Shown here piece after piece: positions 18,670 to 40,940 of a stretch of 64,000 nt of DNA. The stretch lies in contig JBMNCP010000026.1 in the NCBI GenBank assembly GCA_049366795.1, positions 18,608 to 82,607 of the forward strand, read 5' to 3'. The notes beneath the pieces are model-generated. The model worked only from the letters and a program-made list of their open reading frames with translations. It did no database searches and had not been told where the DNA came from. A program made the position numbers and the translations under genes. Positions within the stretch are counted from its first letter, which is position 1, and each line of letters starts with the position of its first letter. Source of the stretch: Desulfobacterales bacterium (GTDB lineage Bacteria > Desulfobacterota > Desulfobacteria > Desulfobacterales > UBA5852).

Positions 18670-18765
18670 CGCCTTCTCCGGTTGAAGTTCCACTGGGTCG
18701 CCCCTGAAAGCCGTCGAGATCCGACGGCCGGTCCGCACCGCGGATCACATGGCTTCCCAAAGCCG

Positions 18766-20286: not shown

Positions 20287-20347
20287 CGGCAAACCTCCCG
20301 AACCGCCGGTGGGATGAAGAGCGGTTCCACCGCACGGTGGAAGGGCC

Positions 20348-22069
20348 TCACGACACGTCGATGCCGTAGCGCTTCATTTTGCGCCACAGCGTCGACCGAT
20401 CCATGTTCAGGGCCTGGGCCGCCTGGCCTTTGTTCCACCGCATCCGGTTCAATGCGTCCAGGATCCGCTCTCTTTCCTCCCGGCTTTCCTCTTCCGGTAC
20501 AGGTGCGCAAATGTGGTGCGGCACCTTTCGCGTTTTGTTCCCGAGCAGGGTAGGCGGGAGATGCCGCTTCTCGATCACCTCCGACTGGCACAGGATCATT
20601 GCGTGCTCGATGATGTTCTCCATCTCCCTCACGTTGCCGGGGTAGTCGTGGTTCAGCAGGATCTCCATGACCTCAGCCGAAATCCGGCAGGGTCGGGTCC
20701 CTCTGGCCACGTTGAGCCTTTTGAGGATGTGCCCGACCAGCAGGGGGATGTCGCACCGGCGCTCCCTGAGCGGAGGCAGGTAGAGCCGCATGAGATTCAG
20801 ACGATAAAAAAGATCTTCCCGGAAGGTTTTGGCCTCGACCATGTCCATCAGGTTCTGGTTGGTGGCCGATATGATTCGGACATCCACCTGGGTGGTCTGA
20901 CGGCTCCCGAGCGGATAGAATTCCTTGTCTTCGATCACCCGCAGCAGCTTGGCCTGCAAGGGAAGGGGCAGGTCACCGATCTCGTCGAGGAAGAGGGTCC
21001 CTCGGTGCGCCATCTGGAAGCGGCCGGGCTTGTCACGGTCGGCGCCGGTAAATGCGCCCCTGACGTAGCCGAACATCTCCGACTCCAAAAGATTGCCCGG
21101 GATGGAGGCGCAGTTGACCTTGACCATTTTATGGTGCGACCGGGTGCTGGCATTGTGAATGATTTTCGCCAGAAGGTCCTTGCCCGTGCCGGTGGGCCCT
21201 TCGATCAGCACGGTGGCATCGCTGGCGGCGATGACCGGTGCGGCCTCGAAGATCCGCTGCATGTCGGGATGCTTGCTGACCATGTCGCAGAAGGTGTACT
21301 GCTCTTTGACGACCCGGTCGAGCTGATACTGGAGCGACAGGTCGGAAAGGGTCGTCATGCCGCCGACCACGGTACCGTCCTCGTTTCGGATGGGAAAGTA
21401 CTTCGCCCGTATGGGGATGTGATTCCCGGACTTGTCGACGATTTCGGTTTTCAGGCACTCCCTGTCTCCCTCAGTGGCGATCGCCCCTCCTCTCAAATCC
21501 TCGCAGAAGGACTTGCCAAAAACCGTTCCGCAGTTTCGGCCCAGCAGCTCGGTCCGGGAATAGCCCGTGATCGTTTCGGCCATCCGGTTGAAGAAGGCGA
21601 TATGCCCGTTGAGATCCACCGTGAACACGGCATGGTCCAGGCTGTCCAGAATATGCTTCAGCTTGAGGCCTTCGAAACGGATGCGCTGCATGAGTTCATG
21701 GAGGACCGTCTTGTCCTGGAAGACTTCGACGCAGCCGACAATACGGCCGTCCGCTCCGTAGAGAGGGCACTCGATCTTGGTGATGCTGCAGAGGCGATTG
21801 TCCTGGTCGGTGATCCGGATCTGGGATACGACGGTTTCGCGTTCGGCGTCCGGAGAGTCCAGGTACTTGCATCGTCCGCCGCAGAGATAATCCAGGAAGA
21901 TATCGTAGCAGAACCGGCCCAGGACATCGGCCTCCCTGGCGCCGGTCAGCTTTTCGGCGACGGCGTTCATGGCCATGATCTTCCGATGTTCGGACAGGAC
22001 GATCACGCCCAGGGCGAGCCGCTCGAAGATTCCCGAAATCTGATCGTATCGGATCAACGCATCCGTCAT
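20348..22069 (-). CDS. dual-PAS sigma54-dependent transcriptional activator (no receiver)
   Basis: Start at [10 protein letters not shown], overlapping the kinase stop as ATGA. It has two PAS-like regions, then [15 protein letters not shown]...GAFTGA and a C-terminal HTH ([18 protein letters not shown]). Confidence 0.9.
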
Positions 22070-24354
22070 GGCATCGGCTCCAGCGCCCGGAACCGAAGGA
22101 CGAAACAGGCGCCTCCGGACCGGCCGGGTAGTGCGTGGATGGTTCCCCCGCAATCCTTGATGATACCGTAGCTGATCGACAGTCCTAAACCGGTTCCCTT
22201 GCCGACCTCCTTGGTGGTAAAGAACGGTTCGAAGATTTTCTCCCGCAACGCCTCCGGGATCCCCGGCCCGCTGTCCTCGACCTCGACGACAACCGCCCCG
22301 TTTTTCCGACGGGAACGGAGATCGATCCATTTTTCAGCGGCATTCCCCGGAGCCTGGCCGAGCCCCCCTGCCTGAGCGTACTCCTCGATGGCATCCCTGG
22401 CGTTGATCAGAAGATTGATGAACACCTGCTCCATCCGGCTGCCGTCGGCAAGGATATCCGGAAGTTCCGGATCGAGATCACAGCGGACTTCGATGCCGCG
22501 GACCTTGAGCTGCTGGCTGAAAATTTCGAGTGCCCTGTGGAGCACCTCGTTGAGATTGATTCGCTCCTTGTCCGGACTGGACTTTCGTCCGAACTCCCGC
22601 ATGTGGTTGATGATCCGGGTGGCTCGACGGATGTGGCTGTCCGTCTGCTCGGCCAGCTTGCGAAGAATCCCCTCCTCGATGGGCTCGCCGTTTTCCAGTT
22701 TTTTCAGGAAAAAGCCGCTGGCCATCTTGATCACCGACAGGGGCTGGTTGAGTTCATGGGCGACGCCGGTGGCCATTTCACCCAGCGTGGCCATCTTGCT
22801 GGCGTGAATGAGCTGCTGCTCGACCTCGAGCCGCTTGGTGATATCGCTGGTGGTCACGAGGAGAACCCGTCGGCCTTCGGATTCAGACGGGGAGATCCGA
22901 ATATTGACGGTCAGCGTGCGGCCATCCTTGGCCACATGCCTTTCCTGATTCAGCTCGACCGAGTTGCGCAGCTTGAATGCAATCCGCTCGGCAGGTTTTT
23001 CATAGAAGAAGTCGAGGAATGATGTTTGAATTATATCATGTTTTTCGTATCCGTAAACCGCGGTGACGCTGTCGTTGCAATCGACGATTTCGAGCGTCTC
23101 CGCATCCAGCACGAAAATCGGGTTGGGAATGTTGTCGAAGATGGCCTGGTATTTTTTCTCGAACTGCCGGAGGCGTGTCTCCAGGGACTTGAGTTGGGTG
23201 AGATCCAGGTTCATCTCCATGGCCGCCACGATGCGGCCTTCGGCGTCCTTCATGGGTGAAGCAACCGCCAGCCAGTGAAGGGTGTTGCCATCCTGGTCGA
23301 TGCCCGTCTCTTCGCCGAACTGTGGGGCACCTTCCTGGAATGTCCTTTCGACCAGGCAGTTTTCGCACTTCTCGCTTCTTCCCTTGTAGGCGTGATAGCA
23401 ATAGTCGCCCTTCATGGGGTGGAACTTCTCGGCGAAGCGCCGGTTGTAGTTGAGCAGCCGGAAATCCCGGTCCTGCAGGGTGATCTCGCAGGGGACCATT
23501 TCGAAGAGGGTCTGGTATTCTTCCTTCTGGCGGCGCAGCTCCGCCTGGCTCGTCGCGATTTCCAGCCCCATCCGGTTGAACGCTATGGCCAGCTGACCGA
23601 TCTCGTCCTCGCTCCGGATGGGCACGCCGGTGCTGTAATCGCCCCTGGCCAGCCGCCGCGTTTCTCCGATCAGCCGTCGGATCGGCCGGTTGACGAATCG
23701 CAGCATGAGAACGACGATGGTGGTGGACGCGATCAGGAACATCACCAGCGCCAGGGTAATGATGCCTCTCTTGAGCACCAGAATTTCCCGGTCCGTGTTC
23801 CTGAGGGACAGGATCACATCCAGCGCGCCCAGGACCTTCTTGTCGGATGGATGCACGTGGCATACATCGGTGGCGCAGCCTGCCTGGTTCCAGATGGGCG
23901 TGATGATGCCCATGTGGCGGTCGCCTTGCGTGTCGGAAAAGATTCGCGTCCGTTTCTCGGATGCCAACTCTGAAACCGGCGGATCGAATCTGTGGCAGAC
24001 ATCGCAGGCCTCGGCCTTGATGTTCGTCGTTCGGTTGACCTCCTCGATGCGGTTGGTAAACTTTATTTCTCCGGCCTTGTTGTAGATCCGGATGGTTTCG
24101 ATCTCCTGCTGCCGGGCGATATTGTTGATGATCTCGTTGATGTCGTCCCGGGAGTTGTGCATCATGGCGAAGTGGGTGCCGAGCCGGATGGTTCTCCCCA
24201 GCCGCACCGCCTCGCCCAGCTTGTGCTCCATGAGATTTTGCTTCTGATACTCGATATTGAAGTATGCCCACACCCCGATGGTGACCATCAGGGTCAGTCC
24301 GACCCCCACGATGAGCTTCGAAACCAGGCTGTGCCGCATCAAGCGGGCTGGCAT
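22066..24354 (-). CDS. membrane sensor histidine kinase with periplasmic domain carrying haem-c type motifs, HAMP, two PAS
   Basis: 762 aa. TM1 (aa ~12-32) and TM2 (~198-218) flank a loop containing CDVCH and CATDVCH. It continues with HAMP, PAS, the H-box [11 protein letters not shown] and the ATPase motifs NARDA...DSGPGI...GTGLGLS. Confidence 0.9.
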
Positions 24355-24508: not shown

Positions 24509-25807
24509 TCAGAGCCCGACCTCCGCCAGGTCCGGCCCCAGGTATTCCCGCTCGTTTTCTCCCAGGATGCCCAGGGACAGGCAGATCAGCGTCCACAGGT
24601 GCACCGTGTGGTAAGGGGCCTCGAAGTGCTCGGCCAGATCGTGGATCTGCGAGTGGCAGTTGTGGCATGCCGCGATGCAGTAGGATGCCTCGGTGTCCAG
24701 GATCTGGCGCAGCTTTAGCTTCCCATATTCCCGCCTGGCGTCCACGTACCCCGACTGCAGGAATCCCCCCCCGCCGCCGCAGCAGTAGTTGTTCGAGCGG
24801 TTGGGGTACATCTCGACGAAATTCTCCTCGCCCACGACGGACTTGACAACGAACCTCAGGTCTTCCGCGATGGGATCGCCGTAGCTTTTCCGTACGATCT
24901 GGCAGGGATCCTGAACGGTGAACTTGATCTTCAGATCCTTGTTCCAGTCGGAATTCACCTTGAGCTTCCCCTCGCGGATCCACCTGGCGTAGTATTCGTA
25001 AATGTTGACGACGTCGAAATCGTGCTCGATACCGAATTTTTTCAGTCCGGCCCGGACTGCGTAAGTGACGTGCCCTCACTCGGTATTGAGATAGACCTTG
25101 CACCCCAGGTCATGGCATTGTTTCGCCGACAATTCGACCACGTGACGCCAGCTGTCATCGTCGGCCAGGAACATGCAGTAGTTTTCCCCGCCCCAGCCTT
25201 TGCTCCCGTATGTCCAGTCCGCCTTGACCTGTTGGAGGATCTTCCACAGGGGCACCATCTCGTCGGGTTCCGTGACGGGCTCCCGGGAGTTCTGGTTCAG
25301 GAAGAACCGGGCGCCCTTCTTGTCGATCGGCGCCTCCAGGGTTTCGAAACCCGGCTGGTTTTCCCGGACTTCCGCGAGGACGTCCTCCACCACGAACTGA
25401 AAATCCTCGGGAGAGGCGCCCATGGCGCTGCAGCTGTCGTTTCTGAGCGCCATGTCGCAGGACTCGCGGATGCCCTTCGGCCGCTCCTCCCGTGGCCAAC
25501 TGGCGCGCACCTCGTAGACGAGGGCGGGGATGTCGATCTGCATGGGGCAGACATAGACGCACCGCTGGCAGAGACTGCACATCCAGACCCACGGGGTGGC
25601 GCGAATCTCCTCCTCCAGACCGAGTGCGGCCATCCGCAGGAACTTTCGTGGATCCATGCCTTCGAGCCCCGTGGCCGGGCACCCCGAGGCGCAGGCGCCG
25701 CAGGTGAGACACAGATCGAGGTTTCCTCCGTCGGGCAGGAGGTCCCTCACCTTGGCCATCAGCGGGCTTTGCCGTTCCGCGCCGAGCTGAATCGCCGCTT
25801 CGCCCAT
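24509..25807 (-). CDS. hdrD: HdrD/DsrK-like Fe-S + CCG-domain heterodisulfide-reductase-family protein, predicted selenoprotein (UGA at 25076-25078 read as Sec)
   Basis: Track ORFs 25076-25864 and 24509-24958 are in the same frame, separated only by one TGA. Read-through gives ...KVYLNTE-U-GHVTYAVRAGLKKFGIEHDF...NSDWNKDL.... The N-terminal part has 2x[4Fe-4S] (CLTCGACASGCP, CSLCQRCVYVCP) and the C-terminal part has CCGGGGG...CHNCHSQ. I chose the start at MGEAAIQ because of an AAGGAG RBS. Confidence 0.75.
25043..25059 (-). other. candidate bacterial SECIS hairpin downstream of the hdrD UGA
   Basis: On the mRNA, UGA is followed by 16 nt and then CAGUCC-GGGCC-GGACUG, a 6-7 bp GC-rich stem with a G-rich apical loop. 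Confidence 0.5.
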
Positions 25808-25856: not shown

Positions 25857-26738
25857 TTATGCACCGGCCGCCGACCTGATCTTTTGCTGAAAACCCGGAG
25901 TGACGGCCAGGTTCAGCGGTAAACCCAGTTCGGAATGGGAAAGACCGATGGCCATCCCCAACAGCTGGGGGAGATAAAGAATGGTGATTCCCAGGTCTTC
26001 ACCGTAGCGGGATGCGACCTTGTCCTGGTAGGCTTCCAGGTTCATCTGGCACATCGGACAGACCGTCACCACGGCGTCGGCTCCCCGGGCGGCCTTGAGG
26101 ATCCGGTAAACGCGCTCCAGGGCGACGGGCATCTTGGTGTTCATGTGCGATGCCCCACAGCATTTCGCCCCCTCGGACCAGGGGTGGACGGTGGCCCCTG
26201 TGGCTTCGATCAGGGGCTCCATCGACGTCGGAGATTCGGGGTGATCGAAAACCGCGTAGGGTCGCAGGCACTGGCAGCCATAGTAGGGTGCGATGGCGAG
26301 TCCGGAAAGTTCATGGTCGAGCCGCTGCCGGATGGCGTCGGCGCCGACATCCCGGGCCAGCACGTCGAGCAGATGCCGAGGTCTGGATTTCCCCTGGAGG
26401 TGTAGACCGGTCTCGGCCAGCAGGACGTTGACGCCTTCGAGCCGTTTCGGATTTCCGTAGACTTCCATTTCGACCCGTTTCAGGTTGAGGTAGCAGGCGC
26501 TGCAGGGCACCAGGACCTCCGGGTCGTCCGCCATGGTTTCGGCGATGGCGAGGTTCACGGCCGGCAGCGCATCGGTCAGCCGGTTGCTGACAGCCGATGC
26601 CGCACTGGCGCCGCAGCAGGTCCAATCCGTCAGTTCGGTGAGCTGCACGCCCATCCCGGCAAGGAAAGCCTTGGTGGACTGGTTGTACTCTCTCGCGGTG
26701 CCCGTCAGGGAGCAGCCCGGATAGTAGAGATAGTTCAT
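25857..26738 (-). CDS. hdrB: heterodisulfide reductase subunit B-like (two CCG domains)
   Basis: 293 aa from MNYLYYPGCSL, with ...TCCGAS...PCSACY... and ...YGCQC...KCCGAS...CPMCQMN. A GGAGG RBS precedes it. ATGA overlap with hdrC. Confidence 0.9.
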   Translation of the reverse strand: MNYLYYPGCSLTGTAREYNQSTKAFLAGMGVQLTELTDWTCCGASAASAVSNRLTDALPAVNLAIAETMADDPEVLVPCSACYLNLKRVEMEVYGNPKRLEGVNVLLAETGLHLQGKSRPRHLLDVLARDVGADAIRQRLDHELSGLAIAPYYGCQCLRPYAVFDHPESPTSMEPLIEATGATVHPWSEGAKCCGASHMNTKMPVALERVYRILKAARGADAVVTVCPMCQMNLEAYQDKVASRYGEDLGITILYLPQLLGMAIGLSHSELGLPLNLAVTPGFQQKIRSAAGA

Positions 26739-27331
26739 TGCCGCGCCTCCATGGTTTCGGCTTTTCGGAACATGGCTTCCAGGGATCTGTGGCCGCCCCC
26801 GCCCTCCCGCCTGTGGGGACCGAGCTTTCCCTTGCGCATCAGGCGCATGCCCATCGGAGTATACTTCAGTGGCAGCAAGGGTTTCCGGAGCATCTGGGAC
26901 CTGAAATACGCCGAGATGAACCCCATCTCGTTCACCCGCCCGTGGCGGCGGATGCTGTCCATGAAGCATCGGTAGAATGCGGTGCCTTCCTGATGCTCCG
27001 GCATGCCTTCCCGCGCCGCGATCTGCTTGAGCCTGGACATGGCGTCGGTCAGGGGCAGCCCCCGCGGGCATCGCAAGGTGCAGGTGTAGCAGGCGGAGCA
27101 CAGCATGAAGGTATGGCTGCGGAAGATGGCCTCGGTGTCGCCCATGAGGACGAGCCGCCACATGTGGCGCGGGGTCAGATCCATTGCGAATGCGTTGGGG
27201 CATGAGGCTGTACAGGTACCGCACTGCATGCAGGCGTTGACATTCTCCCGTATCGCCGTCAGGTCATCCGCGACGCGGGTCCCTGCAGGCGGAGACCCGC
27301 TGTTCGTCGTATGCGTCTCAGGGGATTTCAT
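26735..27331 (-). CDS. hdrC: heterodisulfide reductase subunit C-like (2x[4Fe-4S])
   Basis: 198 aa with CMQCGTCTASCP and CSACYTCTLRCP. An AAGGAGAA RBS precedes it. Confidence 0.9.
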   Translation of the reverse strand: MKSPETHTTNSGSPPAGTRVADDLTAIRENVNACMQCGTCTASCPNAFAMDLTPRHMWRLVLMGDTEAIFRSHTFMLCSACYTCTLRCPRGLPLTDAMSRLKQIAAREGMPEHQEGTAFYRCFMDSIRRHGRVNEMGFISAYFRSQMLRKPLLPLKYTPMGMRLMRKGKLGPHRREGGGGHRSLEAMFRKAETMEARQ

Positions 27332-27379: not shown

Positions 27380-30300
27380 TCAGCAGGCAAGAGCCGCATC
27401 GATGGTCTCCAGCATCTGTCCCGCCGGGTAGCCGTCGAGATAGGCCGCGCCGTTGGGACACACGGAGGCGCAGGCGCCGCAGCCCTGGCACATGGCGGTG
27501 TTGACCAGGATCTGCTCGTTTTCCGGATCTATGGTGCGCGCCTCGTAGGGGCACGCCTCGATGCAGCGCTCGCACAGCGCGCACAGGCTGGTGTGCACGC
27601 CGGCAACGATTCGGTCCGCGTACAAGCGGTCGCGGCAGAGAATTCGCAGACCCCGCTGCGCGGCCGCCTCGGCCGATGCGATGGATTCGGCGATCGTCCT
27701 GGGTGAAAGCGACAGTCCGCAGGCAAATACACCCTCCTTGAGGGCGTCCACCGGACGCCACTTGAATTCCGCGGCCTCGAAAAACCCGTCCCGGTCCAGG
27801 GTGGCGCCGAAGCTCTCGGCCAGGGACCGGGGCAGCTCCGGGATGACGCCGGTCGCCAGCACCACCAGATCGGCGGCGATCTCCACGTCGCGCCCCAGAA
27901 TCGGTTCGAATCCACCGACCTTGACACCGTCGCCGTCAGGCGCGACCCGCGGCTTCCGGTCGACCGTGTAGGGGATGAAGGTCACCCGGTCTTTTCTCGC
28001 CTGTGTAAAACAGGATTCAGTGAACCCATAGCTCATCATGTCCCGGTAGAAGACATAGATCGCCACCTCCGGTTTGAGTTCTCTGAGCCTCCGGATGTGC
28101 TTGAGCGTCGTCTGGCAGCAGACGCGGCTGCAATAGTTGCGGGGCTCCTCCCGGGAATCGACGCACTGGATCATGACCACGTTTCGGAGCCGCCCGCCCT
28201 CGACCTGGTTTTCATTCAGACGGCGTTCCAGCTCGCTCTGGGTGACGATCTCCGGGCTGGCGCCATATCCGTAAGAGGTGGTGGGAGCTTCCCGTCCTCC
28301 GGTCGCCAGAATGGCGACCCCGTGCTCCACCACCCGGGCGGCGCCCTGGCTGTCTTCCAGCGTCGTATGGAACCGGCCCACCTGCCCCATGGAGGTGATG
28401 ACCCGGGTCCCGGTGTTCACCTCGATGCCCGGATGCCCCTCGACCCGCGAGCGGATCTCCTCGAGCAACGGGGCAGTGGGGCGGCCTTCGAGGGTCTGCC
28501 CGATCCACAGCAGATTGCCGCCCAAGGCATCCCCGGCTTCCACCAGCTCCACCGGGTAGCCGTGATCGGCAATCGCCAGCGCCGCATGCATGCCCGCGAT
28601 TCCGCCTCCGATCACCATCGCGCGCTGGGCCACGGGGATGGCGGCCTTCGGCAGGGTCTCCACCCGCTTCAGTCTCGCGGCGGCCATCAGCAGTTCACCG
28701 GTGGCGGCGAAGGCTGCCCTCGCCGGATCTACCGCCTCCGTCGCCGCCTCGCGGGTCAGCGTCGGGGTGCGGATGTCCACGACCTCCATCAGGCGGGGAT
28801 CCAGTTGGACCTCCTTGCCGAGCGCCTTGAGTTTTCGGGCATAGACATAAGGCAGGCAGGCGCCGATCAGCAGTCGGTTCGGGTGATGTCGTTTCACTGC
28901 CTCCGTGAGCTGCCCCCAGCCTTCCGAAGTACAGAGACGCGGAAGGGTCTGCACCCGCGTGACCGCAGGATCCTGCCGCAGTCTCGCCTCCAGAACCTTC
29001 AGGTCCAGGGCGGCGGGAATCGCCCCGTCACAGCTGCAGAGAACCGCCAGCATCCGGGGGGACTCCCGGGAGACGTCCTCATAAAACGGCGTTGCCGTCG
29101 GCGTCTCCGGAACGAGGCTCCCGCCGCTGCCGTGGATCACGCGGGAAGCCTCAGCCGCCGCCGCTCCCGCCTGAATCACCGACTCGCTGATATCCTTGAG
29201 GCCTGAAAAGGCCCCGGCGACCACCACGCCCTCCCGGGCGGTGCGGGTCATCGAAAACGGCTCGGTCTCCGGGAAGCCCCAGGGATTCAGGCCGATGCCC
29301 ACCAGTTCGGCCAGTTCGGCCGATCCCGCCGCAGGCCGCTGCCCGACGGACAGCACGATCATGTCGTAATTCTCGTCCCGTGCGGCGCTGTCGTACCCTG
29401 AGAACCTGACCTGCAACTCTCCCGTCCTGCGGTCGGGAATGACGGAGTGGATCCGTCCCCGCTCCAACCGCACGCCGTCGGCTTCGGCCTCCTGCCGGTA
29501 ACGCTCGAAGGGTTTGCCGAAGGTCCGCATGTCCATGTAGTAGATGACCGTTTCGATCGGCTCCCCCGCCTTCCGGGCGCGCTCGCGGGCGATTCTGGCC
29601 TCCTTCAGTGCGAACATGCAGCAGATGCTCGAACAGAAATCCGCTCCGGACTGGAGATCGCGCGAACCCACGCACTGCACCCAGGCGATGCGCCGCGCCG
29701 GCCGCCCGTCCGAGGGCCGCTGCAACCGACCGGCAAAAGGCCCGGTGCCGCTGAGAATGCGTTCGAATTCGAGGCTGGTAACCACATCCGGAAACACCCC
29801 GTACCCGAAGGGGTTCTTGCCTTCGGACGGGTTGAAATAGTCGGTTCCTCCGGCCATCACGATGGCGCCGACTTCCAGATGCGGACCCTCCGGCGTCTTG
29901 AGCGATTCGAAAATCTGAACGATCTTTGGAATCAGCACATCGGGGTCGAAGGGCTTGATCAGATAATCCACGGCGCCGAGCTTCATGGCCTCGACGGCGG
30001 TCTCCACCGTGGCGTAGGCGGTAATCATCACCACCGGCAGTTCCGGAAAGAGGTCCTTCGCCTTTTCGAGCACCTCGACGCCGTCCATCTCCGCCATCTT
30101 GATGTCCAGGAGCATCAGGTCGATGGTGCCGGTCTTGAGCGTTTCGATCGCCTCCGGACCGGATGCCGCCATCGAGACGGAAAAGCCGCCCTCCACCGAC
30201 AGCCATTCCTTGAGGGAATCGCGGACGATCAGTTCGTCGTCGACGACGAGAATACGGAATCCCTGGCGATCGCCGTCCTCTAAACGGATGGCATCGGTCG

Positions 30301-30826
30301 GGCAGACTTTCGCACACTCCCCGCACCGGGTGCAGACGGTCGTGTCGATCCGGTAAGGATTGGGAATCGCGTGGGGAACCGGCAGATAGACGGCCTTCCG
30401 GGTCTCGAGCCCCTCGTTGAAATCGTTCGACACCTCCACCGGGCAGACCTCCACGCATCGACCGCAGCCGATGCACAGGGCCGGGTCGACAGGGTTGGGC
30501 TTCTGCTTCAAAGTGACCTGGTAGTGACCGGGCTCGCCCTCCACCGATGCCAGATCAGTGGAAAGGAGAATGTCGATGTTGTCGTGAAACAGCCCTTTTC
30601 TCAGACAGAACTGGGAGCTGCTGTCCCGGTCGACCAGGGGCAGCATTTTGCACATGCCGCAGCGGTCGGTCGGAAACTGATAGTCGAGTTGGCTGAGCAC
30701 GCCGCCCAGGTGGGGGCGGCGGTCGATCAGGGTCACCCCGTAACCGAACTCCGCAAGATCGAGGCTGGCACGAATACCGCTGATGCCCCCTCCGACCACG
30801 AGTGCCTTGCCGATCTTTCGTTGCAT
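27380..30826 (-). CDS. fused QmoA-like + HdrA-like flavo-iron-sulfur protein with an inserted CheY-type receiver domain
   Basis: 1148-aa uninterrupted ORF.
- Module 1: VVGGGISG, CIGCGRCVEVCP/CTRCGECAKVCP, ...CSSICCMFA.
- REC insert, aa ~190-306 (nt 29909-30259): FRILVVDDE...IDLMLLDIKMAEMDG...VVMITAY...YLIKPFD.
- Module 2 from aa ~590: AVLCSCDG, VIGGGIAG, CSRVCCQT, and C-terminal CALCERCIEACP/CQGCGACASVCP. Confidence 0.9.
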   Translation of the reverse strand: MQRKIGKALVVGGGISGIRASLDLAEFGYGVTLIDRRPHLGGVLSQLDYQFPTDRCGMCKMLPLVDRDSSSQFCLRKGLFHDNIDILLSTDLASVEGEPGHYQVTLKQKPNPVDPALCIGCGRCVEVCPVEVSNDFNEGLETRKAVYLPVPHAIPNPYRIDTTVCTRCGECAKVCPTDAIRLEDGDRQGFRILVVDDELIVRDSLKEWLSVEGGFSVSMAASGPEAIETLKTGTIDLMLLDIKMAEMDGVEVLEKAKDLFPELPVVMITAYATVETAVEAMKLGAVDYLIKPFDPDVLIPKIVQIFESLKTPEGPHLEVGAIVMAGGTDYFNPSEGKNPFGYGVFPDVVTSLEFERILSGTGPFAGRLQRPSDGRPARRIAWVQCVGSRDLQSGADFCSSICCMFALKEARIARERARKAGEPIETVIYYMDMRTFGKPFERYRQEAEADGVRLERGRIHSVIPDRRTGELQVRFSGYDSAARDENYDMIVLSVGQRPAAGSAELAELVGIGLNPWGFPETEPFSMTRTAREGVVVAGAFSGLKDISESVIQAGAAAAEASRVIHGSGGSLVPETPTATPFYEDVSRESPRMLAVLCSCDGAIPAALDLKVLEARLRQDPAVTRVQTLPRLCTSEGWGQLTEAVKRHHPNRLLIGACLPYVYARKLKALGKEVQLDPRLMEVVDIRTPTLTREAATEAVDPARAAFAATGELLMAAARLKRVETLPKAAIPVAQRAMVIGGGIAGMHAALAIADHGYPVELVEAGDALGGNLLWIGQTLEGRPTAPLLEEIRSRVEGHPGIEVNTGTRVITSMGQVGRFHTTLEDSQGAARVVEHGVAILATGGREAPTTSYGYGASPEIVTQSELERRLNENQVEGGRLRNVVMIQCVDSREEPRNYCSRVCCQTTLKHIRRLRELKPEVAIYVFYRDMMSYGFTESCFTQARKDRVTFIPYTVDRKPRVAPDGDGVKVGGFEPILGRDVEIAADLVVLATGVIPELPRSLAESFGATLDRDGFFEAAEFKWRPVDALKEGVFACGLSLSPRTIAESIASAEAAAQRGLRILCRDRLYADRIVAGVHTSLCALCERCIEACPYEARTIDPENEQILVNTAMCQGCGACASVCPNGAAYLDGYPAGQMLETIDAALAC

Positions 30827-30881: not shown

Positions 30882-32024
30882 TTAGTGGATGCCGACGACC
30901 TCCTGGAACTCCGCCTCGCGAAACGCCGAAAGCGGCGGGGCCTCGGCCGGATCCCGGCCGGCGAGGACATCGAAGGCCCCCTGCGTGTCGTGGGCGATCG
31001 TGCGGAACACCTCCATCACCGGGATGTCGTTCGGGCAGGCGTTGGTGCACTGGCCGCAGCCGACGCAGGCCGTGCTCATATGAGCCAGCCGGGTGAGATG
31101 GTAGAACACGGTATCCGTCGGCAGCTTGATCGCGCCCTTGCGGCGGGCCCAAGCCATGTACTGGGCGGGCTCGTGGTTGAAGACATCGGTGAGAAAGACG
31201 CATTCCTTGCAGTAGCAAACCGGGCAGGCCACCCGGCAGTTGTAACAGTTGACGCAGCCGGCGAAGTAGGTCGTCAGTTTTTCCAGGCTGTCGGTGGCGT
31301 TTCGGGTCGCCTCGAACATCCGGTCCCTTGCGGACGCCCTCTCCGTGACCAGCGATTCCACGGCGGCTTTACGCTTCACGGAAACAGGCGTTTCCGGGTA
31401 GGCAAGCCGTCCCAGGATCTCCTCGCCCTTGGGGCTGCGTCCTTCCAAAAGGATTTCGCGGTCCACATCCACCCCGATCAGCCCGATCGACAGGTCGGCC
31501 CACTCGGGCACCGGGTGTTCACAGACCTGGCATGCGGAGGCCAGGTCGACGCCGTCCATGGCCGCCCCCTTGCCCGACAGCACCTGAGCGGCGAACCGGC
31601 GGGTCGTTTCGGCCGCATCCTCACCCACGAACCGCAGATAGTCTTTGTTCTGGTAAGCCCCGAGGCAGTCCACCCCGATGACCAGCAGTTCGTCCAACCT
31701 GGCCTGCTTGAGCTTCACCAGCTCCACCAGCGCTCGAATTTCGCAAGGCCGCAGCACCACCGCCACCCGACCCCCGAAAGGCTTGCGGGATAGCTTCGAA
31801 ACGACCTTGGCCGTATTCATGGGGAACGCCGGGGCCAGCGGGTCGGCGCCTTCCAGGTCCTTCGGATCGCTGATCAGGGTCGGCATGACCATGGCCTTCA
31901 TGGGAAGCCGTCTCGGCACGAGAAGCGCGCTGACGTCCTCCATGCCCAGCAAATCGTTGAAAAACCCCTTGAGACTTGCCAGCAGATCCCCTTCCTTGAC
32001 GTCGAGTTTTACCTTGGTCGCCAT
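30882..32024 (-). CDS. FrhB/FdhB-family (F420-hydrogenase/dehydrogenase beta-like) flavo-Fe-S protein
   Basis: Start at MATKVKLDV (GGAGCGG RBS). It has CVNCYNCRVACPVCYC and CVGCGQCTNACP plus an FrhB-like N-terminal region. The family assignment is from memory. Confidence 0.65.
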   Translation of the reverse strand: MATKVKLDVKEGDLLASLKGFFNDLLGMEDVSALLVPRRLPMKAMVMPTLISDPKDLEGADPLAPAFPMNTAKVVSKLSRKPFGGRVAVVLRPCEIRALVELVKLKQARLDELLVIGVDCLGAYQNKDYLRFVGEDAAETTRRFAAQVLSGKGAAMDGVDLASACQVCEHPVPEWADLSIGLIGVDVDREILLEGRSPKGEEILGRLAYPETPVSVKRKAAVESLVTERASARDRMFEATRNATDSLEKLTTYFAGCVNCYNCRVACPVCYCKECVFLTDVFNHEPAQYMAWARRKGAIKLPTDTVFYHLTRLAHMSTACVGCGQCTNACPNDIPVMEVFRTIAHDTQGAFDVLAGRDPAEAPPLSAFREAEFQEVVGIH

Positions 32025-32098
32025 GTTTCCGCTCCATTTCGCGTGTTGTCCCGGCACCGGCGGGCCCTGGATCGGGACCGCCTCCCGGCGCCCAAATT

Positions 32099-32521
32099 TC
32101 AGATAACCATCCTCATCTTTGCCTGGCTCGGACCGAGGGATCTGATCTGCTCCACGAGGGATTGAATGGTCTTCGCGAATTCAATCCCGTCGCTCGCCCC
32201 GATCCAGGTCAGCCGCAGCCGCTCCGGCTCGAAGCCGAACTGTGGGAGGATTTCCTTGAGCAGCTTGATCCGCCGCCGCGCCTTGTAGTTGCCGTTGATG
32301 TAATGGCAGTCGCCGGGGTGGCAGCCGCTGACCAGAACTCCGTCCACCCCTTCCAGAAAGGCCTTGATGATGTACTGGGGATCGACCATGCCGGTGCACA
32401 TCACCCGAATGAGCCGGACATTTTTCGGATAGCTCAGCCGGGAAGTGCCGGCCAGGTCGGCCGCCGTGTAGGTACACCAGTTGCAGACAAAGGCGACGAG
32501 AGTCGGTTCGAAATTTTCCAT
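32099..32521 (-). CDS. mvhD: MvhD (methyl-viologen-reducing hydrogenase delta subunit) family protein
   Basis: 140 aa. LVAFVCNWCTYTAADLAG...IRVMCTG...VSGCHPGDCHY is the canonical MvhD pattern. A GGAGGAG RBS precedes it. Confidence 0.9.
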   Translation of the reverse strand: MENFEPTLVAFVCNWCTYTAADLAGTSRLSYPKNVRLIRVMCTGMVDPQYIIKAFLEGVDGVLVSGCHPGDCHYINGNYKARRRIKLLKEILPQFGFEPERLRLTWIGASDGIEFAKTIQSLVEQIRSLGPSQAKMRMVI

Positions 32522-32551: not shown

Positions 32552-35500
32552 CTAGACCCCGACCTGGGCCAGGGCGTCCATCAGTCCGTCAAATTCCGCC
32601 ATCACCTGCTTGGGCTTGAAATGGTCGATCTGCGCCGCGTCGCTGGGGCAGAATCCGGCGCAGCTGCCGCACCCCTTGCACACTGCCTGGTTCACCACCG
32701 AGACGTTGCGACGCTCGTCGAATTCGATGGCGCTGTAAGGGCACAGACCAATGCAGGTCTGGCATCCCGAACAGACATCCGGGTCGATCCAGGAGATCAC
32801 CGAAGGAACGGCGACCCTTTTCCGGACCGCCAGGGAAAGGGCCTTGGCGGCCGCCCCGGAGGCCTGGGAGACGGTGTCCGGAATGTCCTTCGGGCTCTGG
32901 CAGGCGCCGGCGAGAAAAACGCCGTCGGTCGCGGTGTTGAGAGGGCCGAGCTTGGGATGCTCCTCCAGGAAGAACCCGTCCGCCCCGATGTTCACCCCGA
33001 AGATCCGGCCGACCTCGACCGCGTCCTCCCGGGCCTGCATGGCGACGCAGAGCACCGCCATGTCCACGGGAACCCGGATGGCACGGCCGAGCAGCGTGTC
33101 CTCCGCCAGGCAGACGAGCTTGCCCTCCTCCTCCGGGAACCGCGCCTCGTCGGTGATTTCCGCCACCTTGCCCCGGATGAAGGTCGTCCCCTCCTCCTGG
33201 CATCGGCGGTAGAACTCCTCGTAACCCTCTCCGAAGCAGCGCATGTCGATGTAAAAATCGTAGACCGGCGTGTCGTGGCCGACCTTCTCCTTGATGAGGT
33301 GGGAGTACTTGAGGGCGTACATGCAGCAGACCCGGGAGCAGTATTGGTGATAGTTCACGTCCCGGCTCCCGATGCAGTGGAGCAGCGCCACGCTCCTGGG
33401 AGGCCGCGTGAAGGCGCCGTCGCCGTCCCGCATCAGGATCTGTCCGCCGGTGGGCCCGGTGGCGTTGCTCAGCCGCTCGAATTCGAGACTGGTGAACACA
33501 TTGGGATATCTGCCGTATCCGTAGGGCGCCATCGAGGTGGGGTCGAGCACGTCATAGCCTGTGGCCAGGATGATGCTGCCGACCTTGACCTCGACTTCCT
33601 CGGCCTGCATCGAATGGTCGATGGCTTTCGCCTCGCAGGCCTTGACGCACTCCATGCATTCGCAGCAGACCCCGCAGTTCAGGCATCGTTCCGCTTCGCT
33701 CAGCGCCTGCTCCGCGGTGAGCCCCTTCGATTCCTCCTCGAAGGAGCCGACCCGCAGGCTCCAGTCCAAGTGGGTGAGGTGCTCCCGCTTCCGGGGCGCG
33801 CATTCCACAGGGATATCGGCCCACTGGCAGGCGTCTTCCACCGCCTCGGCCGGCTCGGCGATCGGGGCTTCCTTCCGGGGTCCAGATGCCGCTGCATCAG
33901 ACGCCACGCCCGTCTCCAGGAACGCGATGATCCCCTCCGCCGCGCGATGCGCCGCGGCCACGGCTTCCACCACGGTGGCCGGACCGCTCACCGCGTCGCC
34001 CGCGGCGAAAACATGGGGGATCGTCGTCTGCAGGGTGACCGGGTCCGCAACGATCAGGTTCCTGCGGCTGCACTCCAGACGACAGGCATCGTCCACCCAT
34101 GACAAGTCCACCCGCTGACCGATGGCGGGGATGACGGCGTCGCAGTCGACCACGAATTCGGAACCAGCAATCGGCTCGGGCCGCCGGCGGCCGCTTTCAT
34201 CCGGCGCCCCCAGGCGGGTTTCGATACACCGGAGGCCGGTGACGCACCCGTTCTCGGAAAGAATTTCGAGCGGCGCCGCCATGAAGCGGAATTGGACGCC
34301 TTCCTCCCGGGCGCCCTGGATCTCATCGCCAAAGGCAGGCATCTCCGCCTCCGACCGTCGGTAGACCACCGTCACGGATTCCGCTCCGAGACGCCGGGCC
34401 ACCCGAACGGCGTCGATCGCCACGTTGCCGCCGCCGACTACGGCGACGCGGCGCCCCGGACACTCCCGCCCGGCGAGATTGCAGTCCCGCAGGAAGCAGA
34501 TGGCGTCCAGGACCCCCTTCGTTCCGGTCTCGCCCGGGATGCCGAGCCGGGTGCACTCGTGGGCTCCGACCCCCACAAACACGGCGGAAAATCCCTCTTT
34601 TTCGAGATCCGCCAACGTCATGTCTGTGCCGAACCGGACTCCGGTCCGGACATCCACGCCGGTCCGGAGAATGTAGTTGATCTCCCTGTCCAGCACCTCC
34701 GGGGGCAGCCGGTAGTCAGGGATGCCGACCCGCAGCATGCCCCCGAGCTGGTCGAGCGCCTCGAAAAGCGTCACCTGGAAGCCGGCTTTCCGAAGGTCGA
34801 AGGCGGCCGTCAAACCGGCCGGTCCGGAGCCGATCACCGCCACCCTCTCCTCCCGCTCCTCCTTTATTTCCGGCAGGGGAAGCGATTCGAAGTCCACCTG
34901 ATCGGCCGCATACCGCTTCAGGTCGCGGATGGCGATCGCTTCGTCGACTTCCTGACGCCGGCACTCGGTCTCGCAGGGATGAGGGCACACGCGGCCCAGC
35001 ACGCCCGGCAGCGGAATCTTCTCCATGATCAGCCGGACCGCCTCTTCGTACTTGCCCACCTTGATGAGCTGGACGTAGCCCTGAACGTTGACGTGGGCCG
35101 GGCACGCCTGCACGCAGGGAGCCCGATCCTTCTTGTCGATGCAGTAGGTAATGGGAACGGCCTGGGGAAAGGCGCGGTAGATCGCATTCCGGGTGCCCAT
35201 CCCGACGTCCCATTCACTCGGAACCGTCACAGGGCAGGCCTTGGCGCACTCGCCGCAGCCGGTGCAGTTCGCCAGCACGTAGCGGGGGTTTTTCCGGATT
35301 CGCACCGTGTAGTTGCCGATATATCCGGACACCTCCTGGACTTCGCTGTAGGACAGCAGATCGATGTTCGGGTTCTGGGCCACGTCCACCATCTTGGGGG
35401 TGCCGATGCAGGCCGCGCAGTCCAGGGTGGGAAAGGTCTTGTCGAACTGAAGCATGTGCCCGCCGATCGTAGTGGACTTCTCCACCAGATAGGTCTTGTG

Positions 35501-35992
35501 TCCGCTATTGCCGATATCCAGGGCCGCCTGCATGCCCGCGATGCCGCCTCCGACCACCATGATGTCCGGATGGACCTCGACTTCCCGTGCATCGAGGCTC
35601 CGGTGGTAGTTCACACGATTGACGGCGGCGGCGGCCAGGGTCTTGGCCTTCCGGGTGGCTTCGTCCTCGTCCAGAGTGACCCAGGACACCTGCTCGCGAA
35701 CGGAAGCCATCTGGAATAGATAGGGATTGATCCCGGCTCTCTGGCAGGCCCCCTGGAAGGTCTTTTCATGAAGCCGCGGGGAGCAGGAGGCGACCACCAC
35801 GCGGTTGAGACCGTAGGAGGCGATATCCTTTTCGATCATCTCCTGGCCGGGGTCGGAGCACATGAACTTGTAGTCTCGCGAAACCACGACATTGGGAAGA
35901 TGCCGGACAAACTCCGCCACCTCCTCGACCCTGACCTTGTACGCGATGTTGATGCCACAGTGGCAAATGTAGAACCCGATCTTTTTCTCCAT
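32552..35992 (-). CDS. hdrL: large HdrA paralogue (HdrL-type): HdrA fused with a GltD/NfnB-like NAD(P)H-binding module
   Basis: 1146 aa.
- IGFYICHCGINIAYKV (HdrA N-terminal domain), VVGGGIAGM, FPTLDCAAC.
- An inserted CPAHVNVQGY...VAVIGSGPAGLTAA...GGMLRVGIPDYRLP...VVGGGNVAIDAVR, which is the small-subunit glutamate-synthase-like fold.
- It then resumes CSRVCCMYA and ends with 2x[4Fe-4S]. Confidence 0.85.
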   Translation of the reverse strand: MEKKIGFYICHCGINIAYKVRVEEVAEFVRHLPNVVVSRDYKFMCSDPGQEMIEKDIASYGLNRVVVASCSPRLHEKTFQGACQRAGINPYLFQMASVREQVSWVTLDEDEATRKAKTLAAAAVNRVNYHRSLDAREVEVHPDIMVVGGGIAGMQAALDIGNSGHKTYLVEKSTTIGGHMLQFDKTFPTLDCAACIGTPKMVDVAQNPNIDLLSYSEVQEVSGYIGNYTVRIRKNPRYVLANCTGCGECAKACPVTVPSEWDVGMGTRNAIYRAFPQAVPITYCIDKKDRAPCVQACPAHVNVQGYVQLIKVGKYEEAVRLIMEKIPLPGVLGRVCPHPCETECRRQEVDEAIAIRDLKRYAADQVDFESLPLPEIKEEREERVAVIGSGPAGLTAAFDLRKAGFQVTLFEALDQLGGMLRVGIPDYRLPPEVLDREINYILRTGVDVRTGVRFGTDMTLADLEKEGFSAVFVGVGAHECTRLGIPGETGTKGVLDAICFLRDCNLAGRECPGRRVAVVGGGNVAIDAVRVARRLGAESVTVVYRRSEAEMPAFGDEIQGAREEGVQFRFMAAPLEILSENGCVTGLRCIETRLGAPDESGRRRPEPIAGSEFVVDCDAVIPAIGQRVDLSWVDDACRLECSRRNLIVADPVTLQTTIPHVFAAGDAVSGPATVVEAVAAAHRAAEGIIAFLETGVASDAAASGPRKEAPIAEPAEAVEDACQWADIPVECAPRKREHLTHLDWSLRVGSFEEESKGLTAEQALSEAERCLNCGVCCECMECVKACEAKAIDHSMQAEEVEVKVGSIILATGYDVLDPTSMAPYGYGRYPNVFTSLEFERLSNATGPTGGQILMRDGDGAFTRPPRSVALLHCIGSRDVNYHQYCSRVCCMYALKYSHLIKEKVGHDTPVYDFYIDMRCFGEGYEEFYRRCQEEGTTFIRGKVAEITDEARFPEEEGKLVCLAEDTLLGRAIRVPVDMAVLCVAMQAREDAVEVGRIFGVNIGADGFFLEEHPKLGPLNTATDGVFLAGACQSPKDIPDTVSQASGAAAKALSLAVRKRVAVPSVISWIDPDVCSGCQTCIGLCPYSAIEFDERRNVSVVNQAVCKGCGSCAGFCPSDAAQIDHFKPKQVMAEFDGLMDALAQVGV

Positions 35993-36041: not shown

Positions 36042-36467
36042 TCAACGACCCGGGGCCGATTCCGGCCTACTGGTTAGCTTCTCGACGGCAAGGATGAGCG
36101 CTTCGGCGTCCGGTGGATTCGCTAGAAACGCCTCCGGTTCGGGAATCGTCTGATCCGCCTGGGCGGTGCTCAAAACGCCGGACCGAAGGATGGTGTCTCT
36201 GCGAATGCTCGAGATCATGATGACCGGGACCTTCCGAAATGCCTGGTCCGTTTTGAGCGCCCTGTAAAAACAAATCCCATCCTCACCGCACATCATGCAA
36301 TTGAGAATGACGCACAATGGAGGCGACTTCCGGACCTCGCGGAGACCTTCCTCCATGCTCCCGGCGGTTACCGGCTCCAATCCATGACTTCGAATCAGGC
36401 TGCCGATATAGGTGACCGAGTCGCTGTCGTCGTCGACGATCAGAATCTTTCCCGGGCAAGCCGTCAT
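36042..36467 (-). CDS. degenerate (pseudo-)receiver domain protein, first gene of the hdrL operon
   Basis: 141 aa. KILIVDDDSD has the receiver fold, but the phospho-acceptor position reads VILNCMMCGEDG (Asn instead of Asp). The conserved Lys position reads FLANPPD (Asn instead of Lys). A GGAGG RBS precedes it. Confidence 0.75.
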   Translation of the reverse strand: MTACPGKILIVDDDSDSVTYIGSLIRSHGLEPVTAGSMEEGLREVRKSPPLCVILNCMMCGEDGICFYRALKTDQAFRKVPVIMISSIRRDTILRSGVLSTAQADQTIPEPEAFLANPPDAEALILAVEKLTSRPESAPGR

Positions 36468-36643: not shown

Positions 36644-36658
36644 ACAAGATTTGTGCCA
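36644..36658 (-). promoter_or_regulatory. weak candidate sigma54 promoter upstream of the hdrL operon
   Basis: The minus strand reads TGGCACAAATCTTGT. The -24 element is perfect, but the -12 reads GT instead of GC. It lies in an unusually AT-rich intergenic island about 175 nt upstream of the first gene. Confidence 0.3.
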
Positions 36659-40313: not shown

Positions 40314-40407
40314 TCGCCGCTCCTGATCACGCCGTCGTTCCTGCCGCATGAACGCGACGGGAAAGTCTCGAGTGGAAGTTTCGGCCGTCAACGGGGTTGA
40401 CGTCCGT

Positions 40408-40884
40408 TCATGCGGGCGCGTCCTGTCCATCTGGCGGCGCCGCATCCTTCAACAGGTCCTGCTTCCGAACAAAATCGCACAGCGCTTCCTGCACCGTCTG
40501 GGCCGCGAGAAAGGCACAGTGTCGGTCCTCCTCCGGGAACCGTCCCAGAATTTCAAGGATGGTGTCGCCGGTGACTTCCATGAGCTCATCGACCGTCTTC
40601 CCAAATGCGAGTTCGGCGGCCAAGGATCCGCACACGGTGCTTCCCCCGCATCCATCCGTCATAAACGAGGCATCGCTGACACGGCCGTTTTCGAATTTAA
40701 GATAGATCTGCATCGTATCGCCGCAGGAACCGGTCAGGCGTCCATGGCCATCGGCATTATCGATGACGCCCCTGTAAAGGGGCTTGCGCCATCTCTGAAA
40801 CCCGAGTTCTCCGTATGAATCACGGGTCTCCTCGAATATCCGCTCCTGTAGACGGTGGATAAAATCGTCCAGATGATCTACCAT
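40408..40884 (-). CDS. IscU/NifU-N-terminal-like Fe-S cluster scaffold protein
   Basis: 158 aa with three scaffold Cys in the typical context: GSCGDTM...TDGCGGSTVCGS...HCAFLA. A GGGAGAAAG RBS precedes it. Confidence 0.8.
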   Translation of the reverse strand: MVDHLDDFIHRLQERIFEETRDSYGELGFQRWRKPLYRGVIDNADGHGRLTGSCGDTMQIYLKFENGRVSDASFMTDGCGGSTVCGSLAAELAFGKTVDELMEVTGDTILEILGRFPEEDRHCAFLAAQTVQEALCDFVRKQDLLKDAAPPDGQDAPA

Positions 40885-40940
40885 TGAATCGCTTTCTCCC
40901 TGCGCGTATGGGTTCGACGTTTTCTGAAAGCCCCCTCCGG

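Follow-up and report, generated by a model that had tools for sequence, protein, structure and literature searches.

A Receiver Domain Within a Fused HdrA-Type Flavoprotein of Desulfobacterales and Its Possible Role in Phospho-Control of an HdrL-Type Complex

The Fused Flavoprotein REC-HdrAA

The stretch of DNA analyzed here (the window) comprises 64,000 nucleotides from a Desulfobacterales bacterium (GenBank assembly GCA_049366795.1, contig JBMNCP010000026.1, positions 18,608 to 82,607). On its minus strand, where the operon features described below also lie, an uninterrupted open reading frame (ORF) with an ATG start at positions 27380–30826 encodes 1148 amino acids. The product, here termed REC-HdrAA, is a fused double HdrA-type flavoprotein that harbors an internal receiver domain (REC) of the kind used in two-component signaling. 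Flavoproteins of the Hdr type play a central part in how anaerobes conserve energy. The assignment draws on the ORF itself, on Pfam and NCBIfam profiles, on alignments to HdrA structures in the PDB and on an AlphaFold2 (AF2) model compared with solved structures by Foldseek. A first-pass annotation, made from the sequence alone, had described a single 1148-residue ORF combining a QmoA-like and an HdrA-like module, and the open frame, the Pfam matches and the HdrA alignments all bear this out.

Pfam recognizes four Fer4 stretches and two Rossmann-type starts of flavin adenine dinucleotide (FAD) domains (residues 7–45 and 736–776). In alignments to solved HdrA, with E-values down to 1e-121, residues 8–184 correspond to HdrA 146–312 (9sfi_A), which covers the first half of the FAD domain with its inserted ferredoxin, and residues 312–560 correspond to HdrA 314–562, the remainder of that domain. 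Further on, residues 589–779 match HdrA 3–189 (N-terminal cluster domain and beginning of a second FAD domain) and residues 975–1146 match HdrA 476–650 (final part of the FAD domain plus the ferredoxin at the C-terminus). All four domain types of HdrA are found, split across the two fused modules: module 1 is the sole carrier of the inserted ferredoxin, while module 2 (residues 589–1146) contributes the N-terminal domain and the C-terminal ferredoxin.

The inserted ferredoxin of module 1 (residues 110–184; 30275–30499) contains two CX2CX2CX3C motifs, is matched by Fer4 at residues 113–181 and aligns to the inserted ferredoxin of solved HdrA; its invariant cysteines are C118, C121, C124, C128, C165, C168, C171 and C175. 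The second half of the thioredoxin-reductase-like FAD domain of module 1 (residues 311–566; 29129–29896) aligns to HdrA 314–562 and to residues 174–424 of an unfused 435-residue paralogue encoded elsewhere in the window. Module 2 opens with a segment resembling the HdrA N-terminal domain (residues 589–730; 28637–29062; aligned to HdrA 3–189), in which C597, C599, C632 and C657 are invariant. It continues with an FAD domain lacking an inserted ferredoxin and with a C-terminal 2x[4Fe-4S] ferredoxin (residues 733–1131; 27434–28630), identified by Pyr_redox_2 at 736–854, Fer4_10 at 1079–1124, the match to HdrA 476–650 and an unfused 635-residue paralogue. The cysteine ligands and both GxGxxG motifs are invariant in the homologue alignment. 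The AF2 model, built with 119 homologues in the alignment, has a mean predicted local distance difference test score (pLDDT) of 84.9 and a predicted template modeling score (pTM) of 0.85, and its best Foldseek matches are the HdrA structures 8rvy, 5odc and 7bkb.

The NCBIfam matches to HdrA and HdrA2 are strong yet remain below threshold. The equivalog models NF041778, NF041891 and NF040770 score 512.8, 517 and 633 bits against cutoffs of 1400, 1300 and 1100 bits, respectively. Judged by these profiles, REC-HdrAA is an HdrA-like protein and not a bona fide CoB-CoM HdrA. The unfused genes at 10811–14110, of which REC-HdrAA had been called the fused equivalent, are distant paralogues. The correspondence of the two modules to the 435- and 635-residue proteins holds, whereas an identity of only 36–38% and 28% shows that they are not near-copies.

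The Inserted Receiver Domain

The receiver occupies residues 190–310 (29897–30259) and is defined by PF00072, by the invariance of its signature residues and by its predicted fold. PF00072 (Response_reg) matches residues 192–301 with E=3.3e-29 and 101.7 bits, well over the Pfam cutoff of 30.2 bits, and spans profile positions 1–109 of 111; a profile search thus recognizes the insert as the receiver it had been taken for. The first-pass annotation placed the domain at 29909–30259, which equals residues 190–306, and the motifs quoted for it are all there: FRILVVDDE at residue 190, LLDIKM at 239, VVMITAY at 265 and YLIKPF at 288. They supply the acidic pair D196/D197, the phospho-acceptor D241, the switch residues T269 and Y288 (the aromatic residue three positions before the lysine) and K291. 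In the AF2 model the segment adopts the canonical (beta-alpha)5 fold, with strands at 191–195, 216–220, 237–241, 265–269 and 285–290, five helices and a pLDDT of about 82–93.

The receiver fills the gap between residues 312 and 314 of solved HdrA. Likewise, residue 173 of the 435-residue paralogue aligns to residue 180 of REC-HdrAA and residue 174 to residue 307. By these two alignments the receiver was inserted cleanly at the C-terminal boundary of the inserted ferredoxin, adding about 126 residues with none lost, and the earlier view that it is an inserted domain and not a linker stands.

Conservation was assessed in the 120 best matches from a collection of 5.8 billion proteins. D196, D197, E198, D241, T269, K291 and P292 are invariant in all 120, so the acidic pair, phospho-acceptor, threonine and lysine claimed for the domain are not only present but fixed across the set; Y288 is invariant in the alignment of the 119 closest homologues. 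Conservation is 0.73 in the receiver as against 0.61 in the rest of REC-HdrAA. Across all 1148 residues, the 25-residue window with the highest conservation is 265–289, and the six best windows all lie within 265–295. Residues 265–293 form the beta4-alpha4-beta5 part of the receiver, the usual output face of such domains, and are conserved above the FAD and cluster motifs. Among NCBIfam families the domain is nearest to NtrC/ZraR/AtoC-type receivers. A recent duplication of a neighboring receiver was ruled out, as the identity to the receivers of the adjacent kinases is only 36–37%.

Distribution of the Receiver-HdrAA Family

All 120 best homologues are 60–79% identical to REC-HdrAA, measure about 1130–1180 residues and contain PF00072; among their source names are Desulfonema magnum, Desulfococcaceae, Desulfobacteraceae and Desulfobacterales. 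When one genome per GTDB species was scanned, full-length matches to the ferredoxin-receiver-FAD junction came from at least about 30 species, with Desulfobacteraceae, Desulfosarcinaceae, Desulfococcaceae, Desulfosalsimonas, Desulfobacula, Syntrophobacterales and Syntrophobacteraceae among the matches listed. When sequences were clustered at 50%, the contiguous ferredoxin-receiver-FAD layout was found in about 15–20 clusters. On this sampling the receiver-HdrAA proteins form a large family and are not peculiar to the source genome. Their database labels are automatic only ("response regulator," "FAD-dependent oxidoreductase" or "heterodisulfide reductase subunit A").

The same comparison bears on whether the fusion or the insertion might be an artefact of assembly or sequencing, such as a frameshift or a chimeric contig. 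This explanation deserves practically no credence: the 1130–1180-residue architecture is shared by all 120 homologues across many independent assemblies, including closed genomes, the length is maintained and AF2 predicts the structure with confidence. A frameshift or stop separating the receiver from the flavoprotein, an eventuality raised in the first-pass annotation, is likewise not borne out, given that length and insert recur throughout the set.

The HdrL-Type Operon

REC-HdrAA is part of a minus-strand operon which, in the order of transcription, encodes a small receiver, HdrL, MvhD, an FrhB/FdhB-like protein, REC-HdrAA, HdrC and HdrB. It continues after HdrB with an HdrD-like protein, a HAMP-PAS-PAS kinase, a PAS-sigma54 activator, a REC-HATPase protein and a REC-PAS kinase. 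Directly downstream of REC-HdrAA lie the genes for its HdrC- and HdrB-like partners. The HdrC-like 2x[4Fe-4S] subunit (26735–27331) is recognized by Fer4_8 and Fer4_17, scores below the cutoff of the HdrC model TIGR03290 and is syntenic in most loci. The HdrB-like subunit (25857–26738) has 293 residues from an ATG at 26738 that overlaps the hdrC stop; it contains two CCG domains (PF02754 twice, E=1.7e-22) and is also syntenic.

Upstream, an FrhB/FdhB-like iron-sulfur protein (30882–32057; PF04432 and Fer4) is preceded by an MvhD/FlpD-like [2Fe-2S] protein (32099–32521). The latter was identified from its ORF and from tblastn orthologues that are 69–89% identical; its counterpart in locus L002 is PF02662 (FlpD). 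The HdrL-type protein (32552–35992; 1146 residues), named following the published definition of HdrL (PMC2702500), consists of an HdrA into which a complete GltD/NfnB-like NAD(P)H-binding module has been inserted: Fer4_20 and Pyr_redox_2 are present, NCBIfam HdrA2 matches at both ends and PRK12771/GltD matches mid-protein with 533.6 bits, exceeding the 516-bit cutoff. A small single-domain degenerate receiver (36042–36467; ORF and a partial PF00072 match, E=2.8e-12) with Asn at the acceptor position heads the operon; in L002, too, hdrL is preceded by a comparable small receiver gene.

About 175 nucleotides upstream of the small receiver, a -24/-12-like element of the sigma54 type, TGGCACAAATCTTGT (36644–36658; TGGCAC-N5-TTGT), was located by pattern with one mismatch. 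Such matches are not above chance in the window (6 found, 3.9 expected), and it is by position alone that the site at 36644 is suggestive.

Synteny was established by tblastn of the window proteins against retrieved loci, and 31 loci with an intact receiver were tabulated. The FdhB-like gene lies upstream in 28 of them, MvhD in 25 and a full-length HdrL in 18, while HdrC and HdrB follow downstream in 22 and 21; several of the gaps correspond to short contigs or partial matches. The FdhB-like gene is upstream in four of four pseudo-receiver loci (described below) as well, and the synteny of the HdrL-type operon is kept in about 30 loci.

The same gene set of HdrL, MvhD, FdhB-like protein, HdrA, HdrC and HdrB has been described, and was matched here through the published descriptions, for the HdrABC/HdrL complex of Syntrophobacter fumaroxidans (Sfum_0819-0824; PMC5947623); locus VIII of Desulfobacterium autotrophicum (hdrL/hdrA4-hdrCB; PMC2702500) has the same HdrL-type set. 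By gene content, the REC-HdrAA operon belongs to the HdrL-associated Hdr type known from these two genera. The complex of S. fumaroxidans is abundant under sulfate-reducing conditions (PMC5947623). A receiver in the HdrA subunit is mentioned in neither report (PMC5947623; PMC2702500).

Synteny and domain content identify REC-HdrAA as the predicted central flavoprotein of an HdrL-type soluble complex made up of HdrL, MvhD, the FdhB-like protein, the HdrA-HdrA fusion, HdrC and HdrB. The presumed function of HdrL-type complexes is to link NAD(P)H, ferredoxin and a disulfide acceptor via flavin-based bifurcation or confurcation. By homology, the REC-HdrAA complex may likewise bifurcate electrons.

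The HdrD-like gene that follows hdrB is a candidate for a selenoprotein of 432 residues (24509–25807) with selenocysteine at position 244, encoded by an in-frame TGA at 25076–25078. Reading through this codon joins an "HdrC-like" ORF (25076–25807) to the following frame with a CCG domain. The TGA is kept in eight homologous loci, with 61–82% protein identity across it in seven and 29% in the eighth, and a Pseudodesulfovibrio homologue has Cys at this position. A hairpin at 25043–25059, located 16–18 nucleotides downstream of the TGA, shows compensatory changes in its stem, while its folding energy, compared with shuffles as for a selenocysteine insertion sequence (SECIS)-like element, is no better (z=-0.05). 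The selenocysteine call is therefore based on the conserved TGA, the Cys homologue and the stem covariation and not on the energy of the hairpin.

Kinases and Signaling Genes of the Operon

The candidate phosphodonor is a membrane histidine kinase (22066–24354) in which Pfam domains and hydrophobic segments (residues 8–34 and 190–222) give the order transmembrane segment, outer loop of about 155 residues, transmembrane segment, HAMP, PAS, PAS, HisKA and HATPase. The outer loop contains the heme c-type motifs CXXCH (residues 117–121; nucleotides 23992–24006) and CX4CH (residues 160–166; nucleotides 23857–23877), which are kept in 19 of 19 and 20 of 20 orthologues. Pfam gives the loop a weak, sub-threshold match to the chemoreceptor sensor family PF21563, and sequence comparison with solved structures found no relative. 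Together, motifs and predicted topology suggest that the loop is a putative periplasmic redox sensor with c-type heme.

Linkage of this kinase to the operon is frequent. An orthologue of the HAMP-PAS type lies directly downstream in 19 of the 26 intact-receiver loci whose downstream flank extends over 4 kb or more (47–62% identity over at least 83% of the length; same strand in 18 of the 19), and a twentieth locus gives a partial match. Six loci have the kinase immediately after the REC-HdrAA gene. The receiver-bearing protein of locus L084 (P0136) has an identity of only 46% with REC-HdrAA in the junction segment; there hdrB and the kinase gene abut, with the PAS activator, the REC-PAS kinase and the REC-HATPase protein all retained.

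Three further signaling proteins follow, each assigned from Pfam. The first is a PAS-PAS-sigma54 enhancer-binding protein without a receiver (20348–22069), whose probable start at 22069 abuts the kinase stop. Since this local activator has no receiver, it cannot be the phospho-acceptor of the kinase. It is followed by a REC-(PAS-like)-HATPase_c protein without a recognized HisKA (18766–20292), which is frequent in the synteny, and by a REC-PAS-HisKA-HATPase hybrid kinase (17062–18738). A REC-PAS hybrid kinase lies on the other flank of the operon in L002, L003, L016, L023, L024 and L084. The three kinases reported downstream of REC-HdrAA can accordingly be upheld for the proteins at 22066–24354 and 17062–18738, which combine HisKA and HATPase; that at 18766–20292 has HATPase_c and no recognized HisKA.

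As a separate observation, similar Cys-rich motifs occur in the PAS-type regions of the kinase (residues 319–333), the REC-HATPase protein (203–218) and the enhancer-binding protein (130–154). In the kinase the motif reads C-x11-C-x2-C and is kept in 20 of 20 orthologues; it may represent a metal- or Fe-S-sensing site.

This ensemble of signaling genes raises the question of the direction of signaling. In a reversed flow of information, the Hdr complex would be the sensor and the receiver a phosphate sink or relay station, making the flavoprotein a "trigger enzyme" whose redox state or conformation sets the accessibility of the receiver and thereby tunes the hybrid kinases and, indirectly, operon expression. 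Such a scheme would account for the several hybrid REC-kinase proteins and the degenerate single-domain receiver of the cluster, which are typical of branched phosphorelays, for the lack of a nearby DNA-binding response regulator with a receiver, and for the sigma54-like promoter and PAS-sigma54 activator that flank the operon. We nevertheless regard it as unlikely: since the sigma54 activator lacks a receiver, it is not apparent how a phosphorelay would reach transcription, the window proteins scanned yielded no Hpt domain, and the extreme conservation of the alpha4-beta5 output face is more in keeping with a receiver that engages a partner surface than with a passive sink.

Receiver-Less and Pseudo-Receiver Relatives

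Fused double-HdrA proteins occur in three natural states: without a receiver, with a canonical receiver (Desulfobacterales and Syntrophobacterales) and with a degenerate pseudo-receiver (Desulfovibrionales). The receiver-less relatives, which appear as the next-best matches, measure about 1000–1030 residues and have 2 residues at the insertion site as against 123–126; one of them lies in the same synteny of HdrL, MvhD, FdhB-like protein, HdrAA and HdrC. The pseudo-receiver clade is a large group that includes Desulfolutivibrio, Desulfocurvibacter africanus, Pseudodesulfovibrio and Solidesulfovibrio. Here, the insert is found at the same site and has the same length, and its active site is degenerate: the Thr is replaced by Ala or Gly in 96 of 120 sequences and the acceptor Asp by Gly, Ser or Ala in 50 of 120, while Pro, Ala or Arg mostly takes the place of the second acidic residue. 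Modeled by AF2, the pseudo-receiver of the Desulfolutivibrio protein retains a confident (beta-alpha)5 fold (pLDDT 90–95), and in this clade the conserved positions have moved to helices alpha3 and alpha5. A rough neighbor-joining tree, calculated with the receiver columns removed and without support values, places canonical and pseudo-receiver proteins in one clade in which a few receiver-less proteins are nested.

Three closed Desulfovibrionales genomes (L086, L087 and L088) have a common operon layout, encoding in this order HdrA, MvhD, FdhB-like protein, pseudoREC-HdrAA, HdrC, HdrB and a universal stress protein (Usp). Their first operon gene is a plain HdrA of about 670–690 residues and not HdrL. 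The operon kinase is absent in all three loci examined; each instead has a REC-sigma54 activator upstream on the opposite strand, with a PAS kinase beside the activator in two. The intact switch thus appears to go with an operon kinase and a receiver-less activator, and the decayed switch with a conventional two-component pair and no operon kinase. As a side observation, the Usp gene always follows hdrB in these three genomes.

The pseudo-receivers also invite the explanation that the domain is a purely structural or dimerization module which stabilizes the ferredoxin arm and whose phosphorylation is not used. The Desulfovibrionales proteins, with their fold kept at the same site without catalytic residues and with alpha3 and alpha5 conserved instead, would be consistent with such a role, as would those intact-receiver loci that have no adjacent kinase. 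Against it, none of the six phospho-switch residues varies among homologues that diverge at about 40% of their remaining positions, the sister clade shows how quickly these residues are lost when they are not needed, and synteny ties the kinase closely to the operon. We hold a purely structural receiver to be distinctly improbable.

Receivers have also been joined to HdrA independently. One fusion (P0137, locus L090) places three receivers N-terminal to a complete HdrA and is followed by the gene of a REC-PAS kinase; another (P0192) combines a receiver, a domain resembling the glycine-cleavage H protein (GCV_H) and an HdrA-like part.

Proposed Mechanism of Phospho-Control

In solved HdrA, the inserted ferredoxin is the low-potential exit for electrons. 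Conformational flexibility of this inserted ferredoxin gates electron transfer in HdrA (PMC13518236). The position of the receiver directly beside this domain points to post-translational control of the Hdr-type complex by phosphorylation, probably exerted via the adjoining ferredoxin arm, and we consider such control moderately likely. The analysis establishes the domain with its insertion point and predicted fold, the fixed switch residues, the operon, the co-occurring kinase and the decayed active site of one sister clade; that phosphorylation occurs, which kinase would deliver it and what its effect on electron transfer would be are inferred.

In the proposed sequence of events, a histidine kinase would phosphorylate D241, the likeliest donor among three candidates being the membrane kinase of the operon, which would report the periplasmic redox state. 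The T269/Y288/K291 switch would then reshape the alpha4-beta5-alpha5 face, and the reshaped receiver would reposition or immobilize the ferredoxin arm or alter the docking of subunits. In this way the complex could start, stop or re-couple its electron flow within seconds, with no need for new transcription. The most specific version of this proposal, in which a membrane kinase that senses the periplasmic redox state through c-type heme directly phosphorylates a receiver in a bifurcating-type Hdr flavoprotein and thereby gates the low-potential ferredoxin branch, is put forward tentatively, as a possibility that we hold to be somewhat doubtful.

Phospho-control is strengthened by the invariance of the phospho-switch residues in 120 homologues, by the receiver output face being the most conserved part of the protein, by the linkage of a histidine kinase to the operon in most loci and by the decay of the active site in Desulfovibrionales, whose three examined loci lack an operon kinase. 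Further support comes from the persistence of the gene set, kinases included, in the divergent locus L084, from receiver-less orthologues that share the operon type and from the independent REC-HdrA fusions, one of them with a kinase gene after it.

Several points weigh against phospho-control by the operon kinase. About one quarter of the intact-receiver loci, including that of Desulfonema magnum, have no kinase beside the operon. The two other canonical receivers of the operon, in the REC-HATPase protein and the REC-PAS kinase, could be the real partners of the membrane kinase. The contrast in kinase content with the pseudo-receiver clade is drawn from three loci only. Finally, the retention of the receiver fold without a working active site in Desulfovibrionales indicates that the role of the domain is, by this comparison, partly structural.

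A receiver beside the ferredoxin arm suggests that major marine sulfate reducers of the Desulfobacterales and Syntrophobacterales switch a complex coupling NAD(P)H, ferredoxin and a disulfide by phosphorylation. If the version with the heme-bearing kinase is correct, a flavin-based bifurcating or confurcating enzyme would for the first time be seen under two-component, post-translational control, with the electron supply in the periplasm tied to energy coupling in the cytoplasm on a timescale of seconds. Phospho-control of REC-HdrAA would also define an unusual class of response regulator, with an internal receiver and a multi-cofactor redox enzyme as its output. The receiver-less, canonical and pseudo-receiver versions of the complex, some of them in cultured strains, constitute natural controls which make the hypothesis directly testable.

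Comparison With Known Systems

The HdrA of the methanogen HdrABC-MvhAGD complex and its solved relatives (5ODC, 8RVY, 7BKB and 9SFI) resemble REC-HdrAA in having HdrB- and HdrC-like partners and MvhD alongside. REC-HdrAA differs from them in distributing the four domains over two fused modules, which form a covalent pseudo-heterodimer, and in the receiver inserted after the ferredoxin domain; moreover, its host is bacterial, so CoM-S-S-CoB is not the expected substrate.

The Qmo complex also contains a pair of HdrA-type flavoproteins, of which QmoA is the shorter and QmoB the longer, with extra ferredoxin-type domains. REC-HdrAA, by contrast, joins both modules in a single chain, includes an inserted receiver and has HdrB/C-like partners in place of QmoC. 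Neither the QmoC membrane subunit nor apr genes were found among the window ORFs scanned, the sole qmoC match being a weak one to the HdrC-like protein (41.5 bits against a cutoff of 300). A genuine Qmo complex was ruled out, the scanned ORFs nearby including neither QmoC nor Apr genes.

Among response regulators with enzymatic outputs, CheB, PleD/WspR, RpfG and RssB share with REC-HdrAA a canonical CheY-like receiver with a complete phospho-switch on an effector that does not bind DNA. Their receivers are N-terminal, whereas that of REC-HdrAA is internal to the effector fold, and the effector of REC-HdrAA is a flavin/iron-sulfur redox enzyme with multiple cofactors and a subunit of a larger complex. 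Aspartate-less and pseudo-receivers (PMC4395418) find their counterparts, with degenerate active sites, in the Desulfovibrionales orthologues and in the small ORF at 36042–36467, while REC-HdrAA itself retains every catalytic and switch residue.

Receivers with enzymatic outputs and HdrA-type flavoproteins are each of known kinds; the combination of a receiver inside an Hdr-type flavoprotein appears to be new, none having been found in the literature searched. A 2024 preprint that surveyed 501 HdrA sequences lists 11 architectures, none with a receiver. Full-text literature searches returned no description of a receiver within HdrA, in agreement with the first-pass annotation, which knew of no characterized example. 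Post-translational regulation of Hdr-type flavoproteins was likewise not found in the literature searched.

Other Features of the Window

Besides the REC-HdrAA operon, the window contains a second, unfused and receiver-less set at 9162–14110 on the minus strand, which encodes QmoA-like (435 residues), HdrA-like (635 residues), HdrC-like and HdrB-like proteins; the two flavoprotein paralogues at 10811–14110 are thus followed by HdrC-like and HdrB-like genes of their own. A PAS-sigma54 activator on the plus strand (14827–16425) adjoins this set, with a sigma54-like element at 14849–14863, and a further PAS-sigma54 activator is located at 42049–43434.

Two MinD/ParA-type P-loop proteins with embedded ferredoxin motifs (38584–41939, minus strand) adjoin a protein of the dinitrogenase FeMo-cofactor-binding family. 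On the plus strand, a gene at 47973–50954 encodes a 993-residue fusion of an FAD-linked oxidase of the GlcD/D-lactate dehydrogenase type with a 4Fe-4S dicluster domain and two CCG domains that form an HdrD-like C-terminus.

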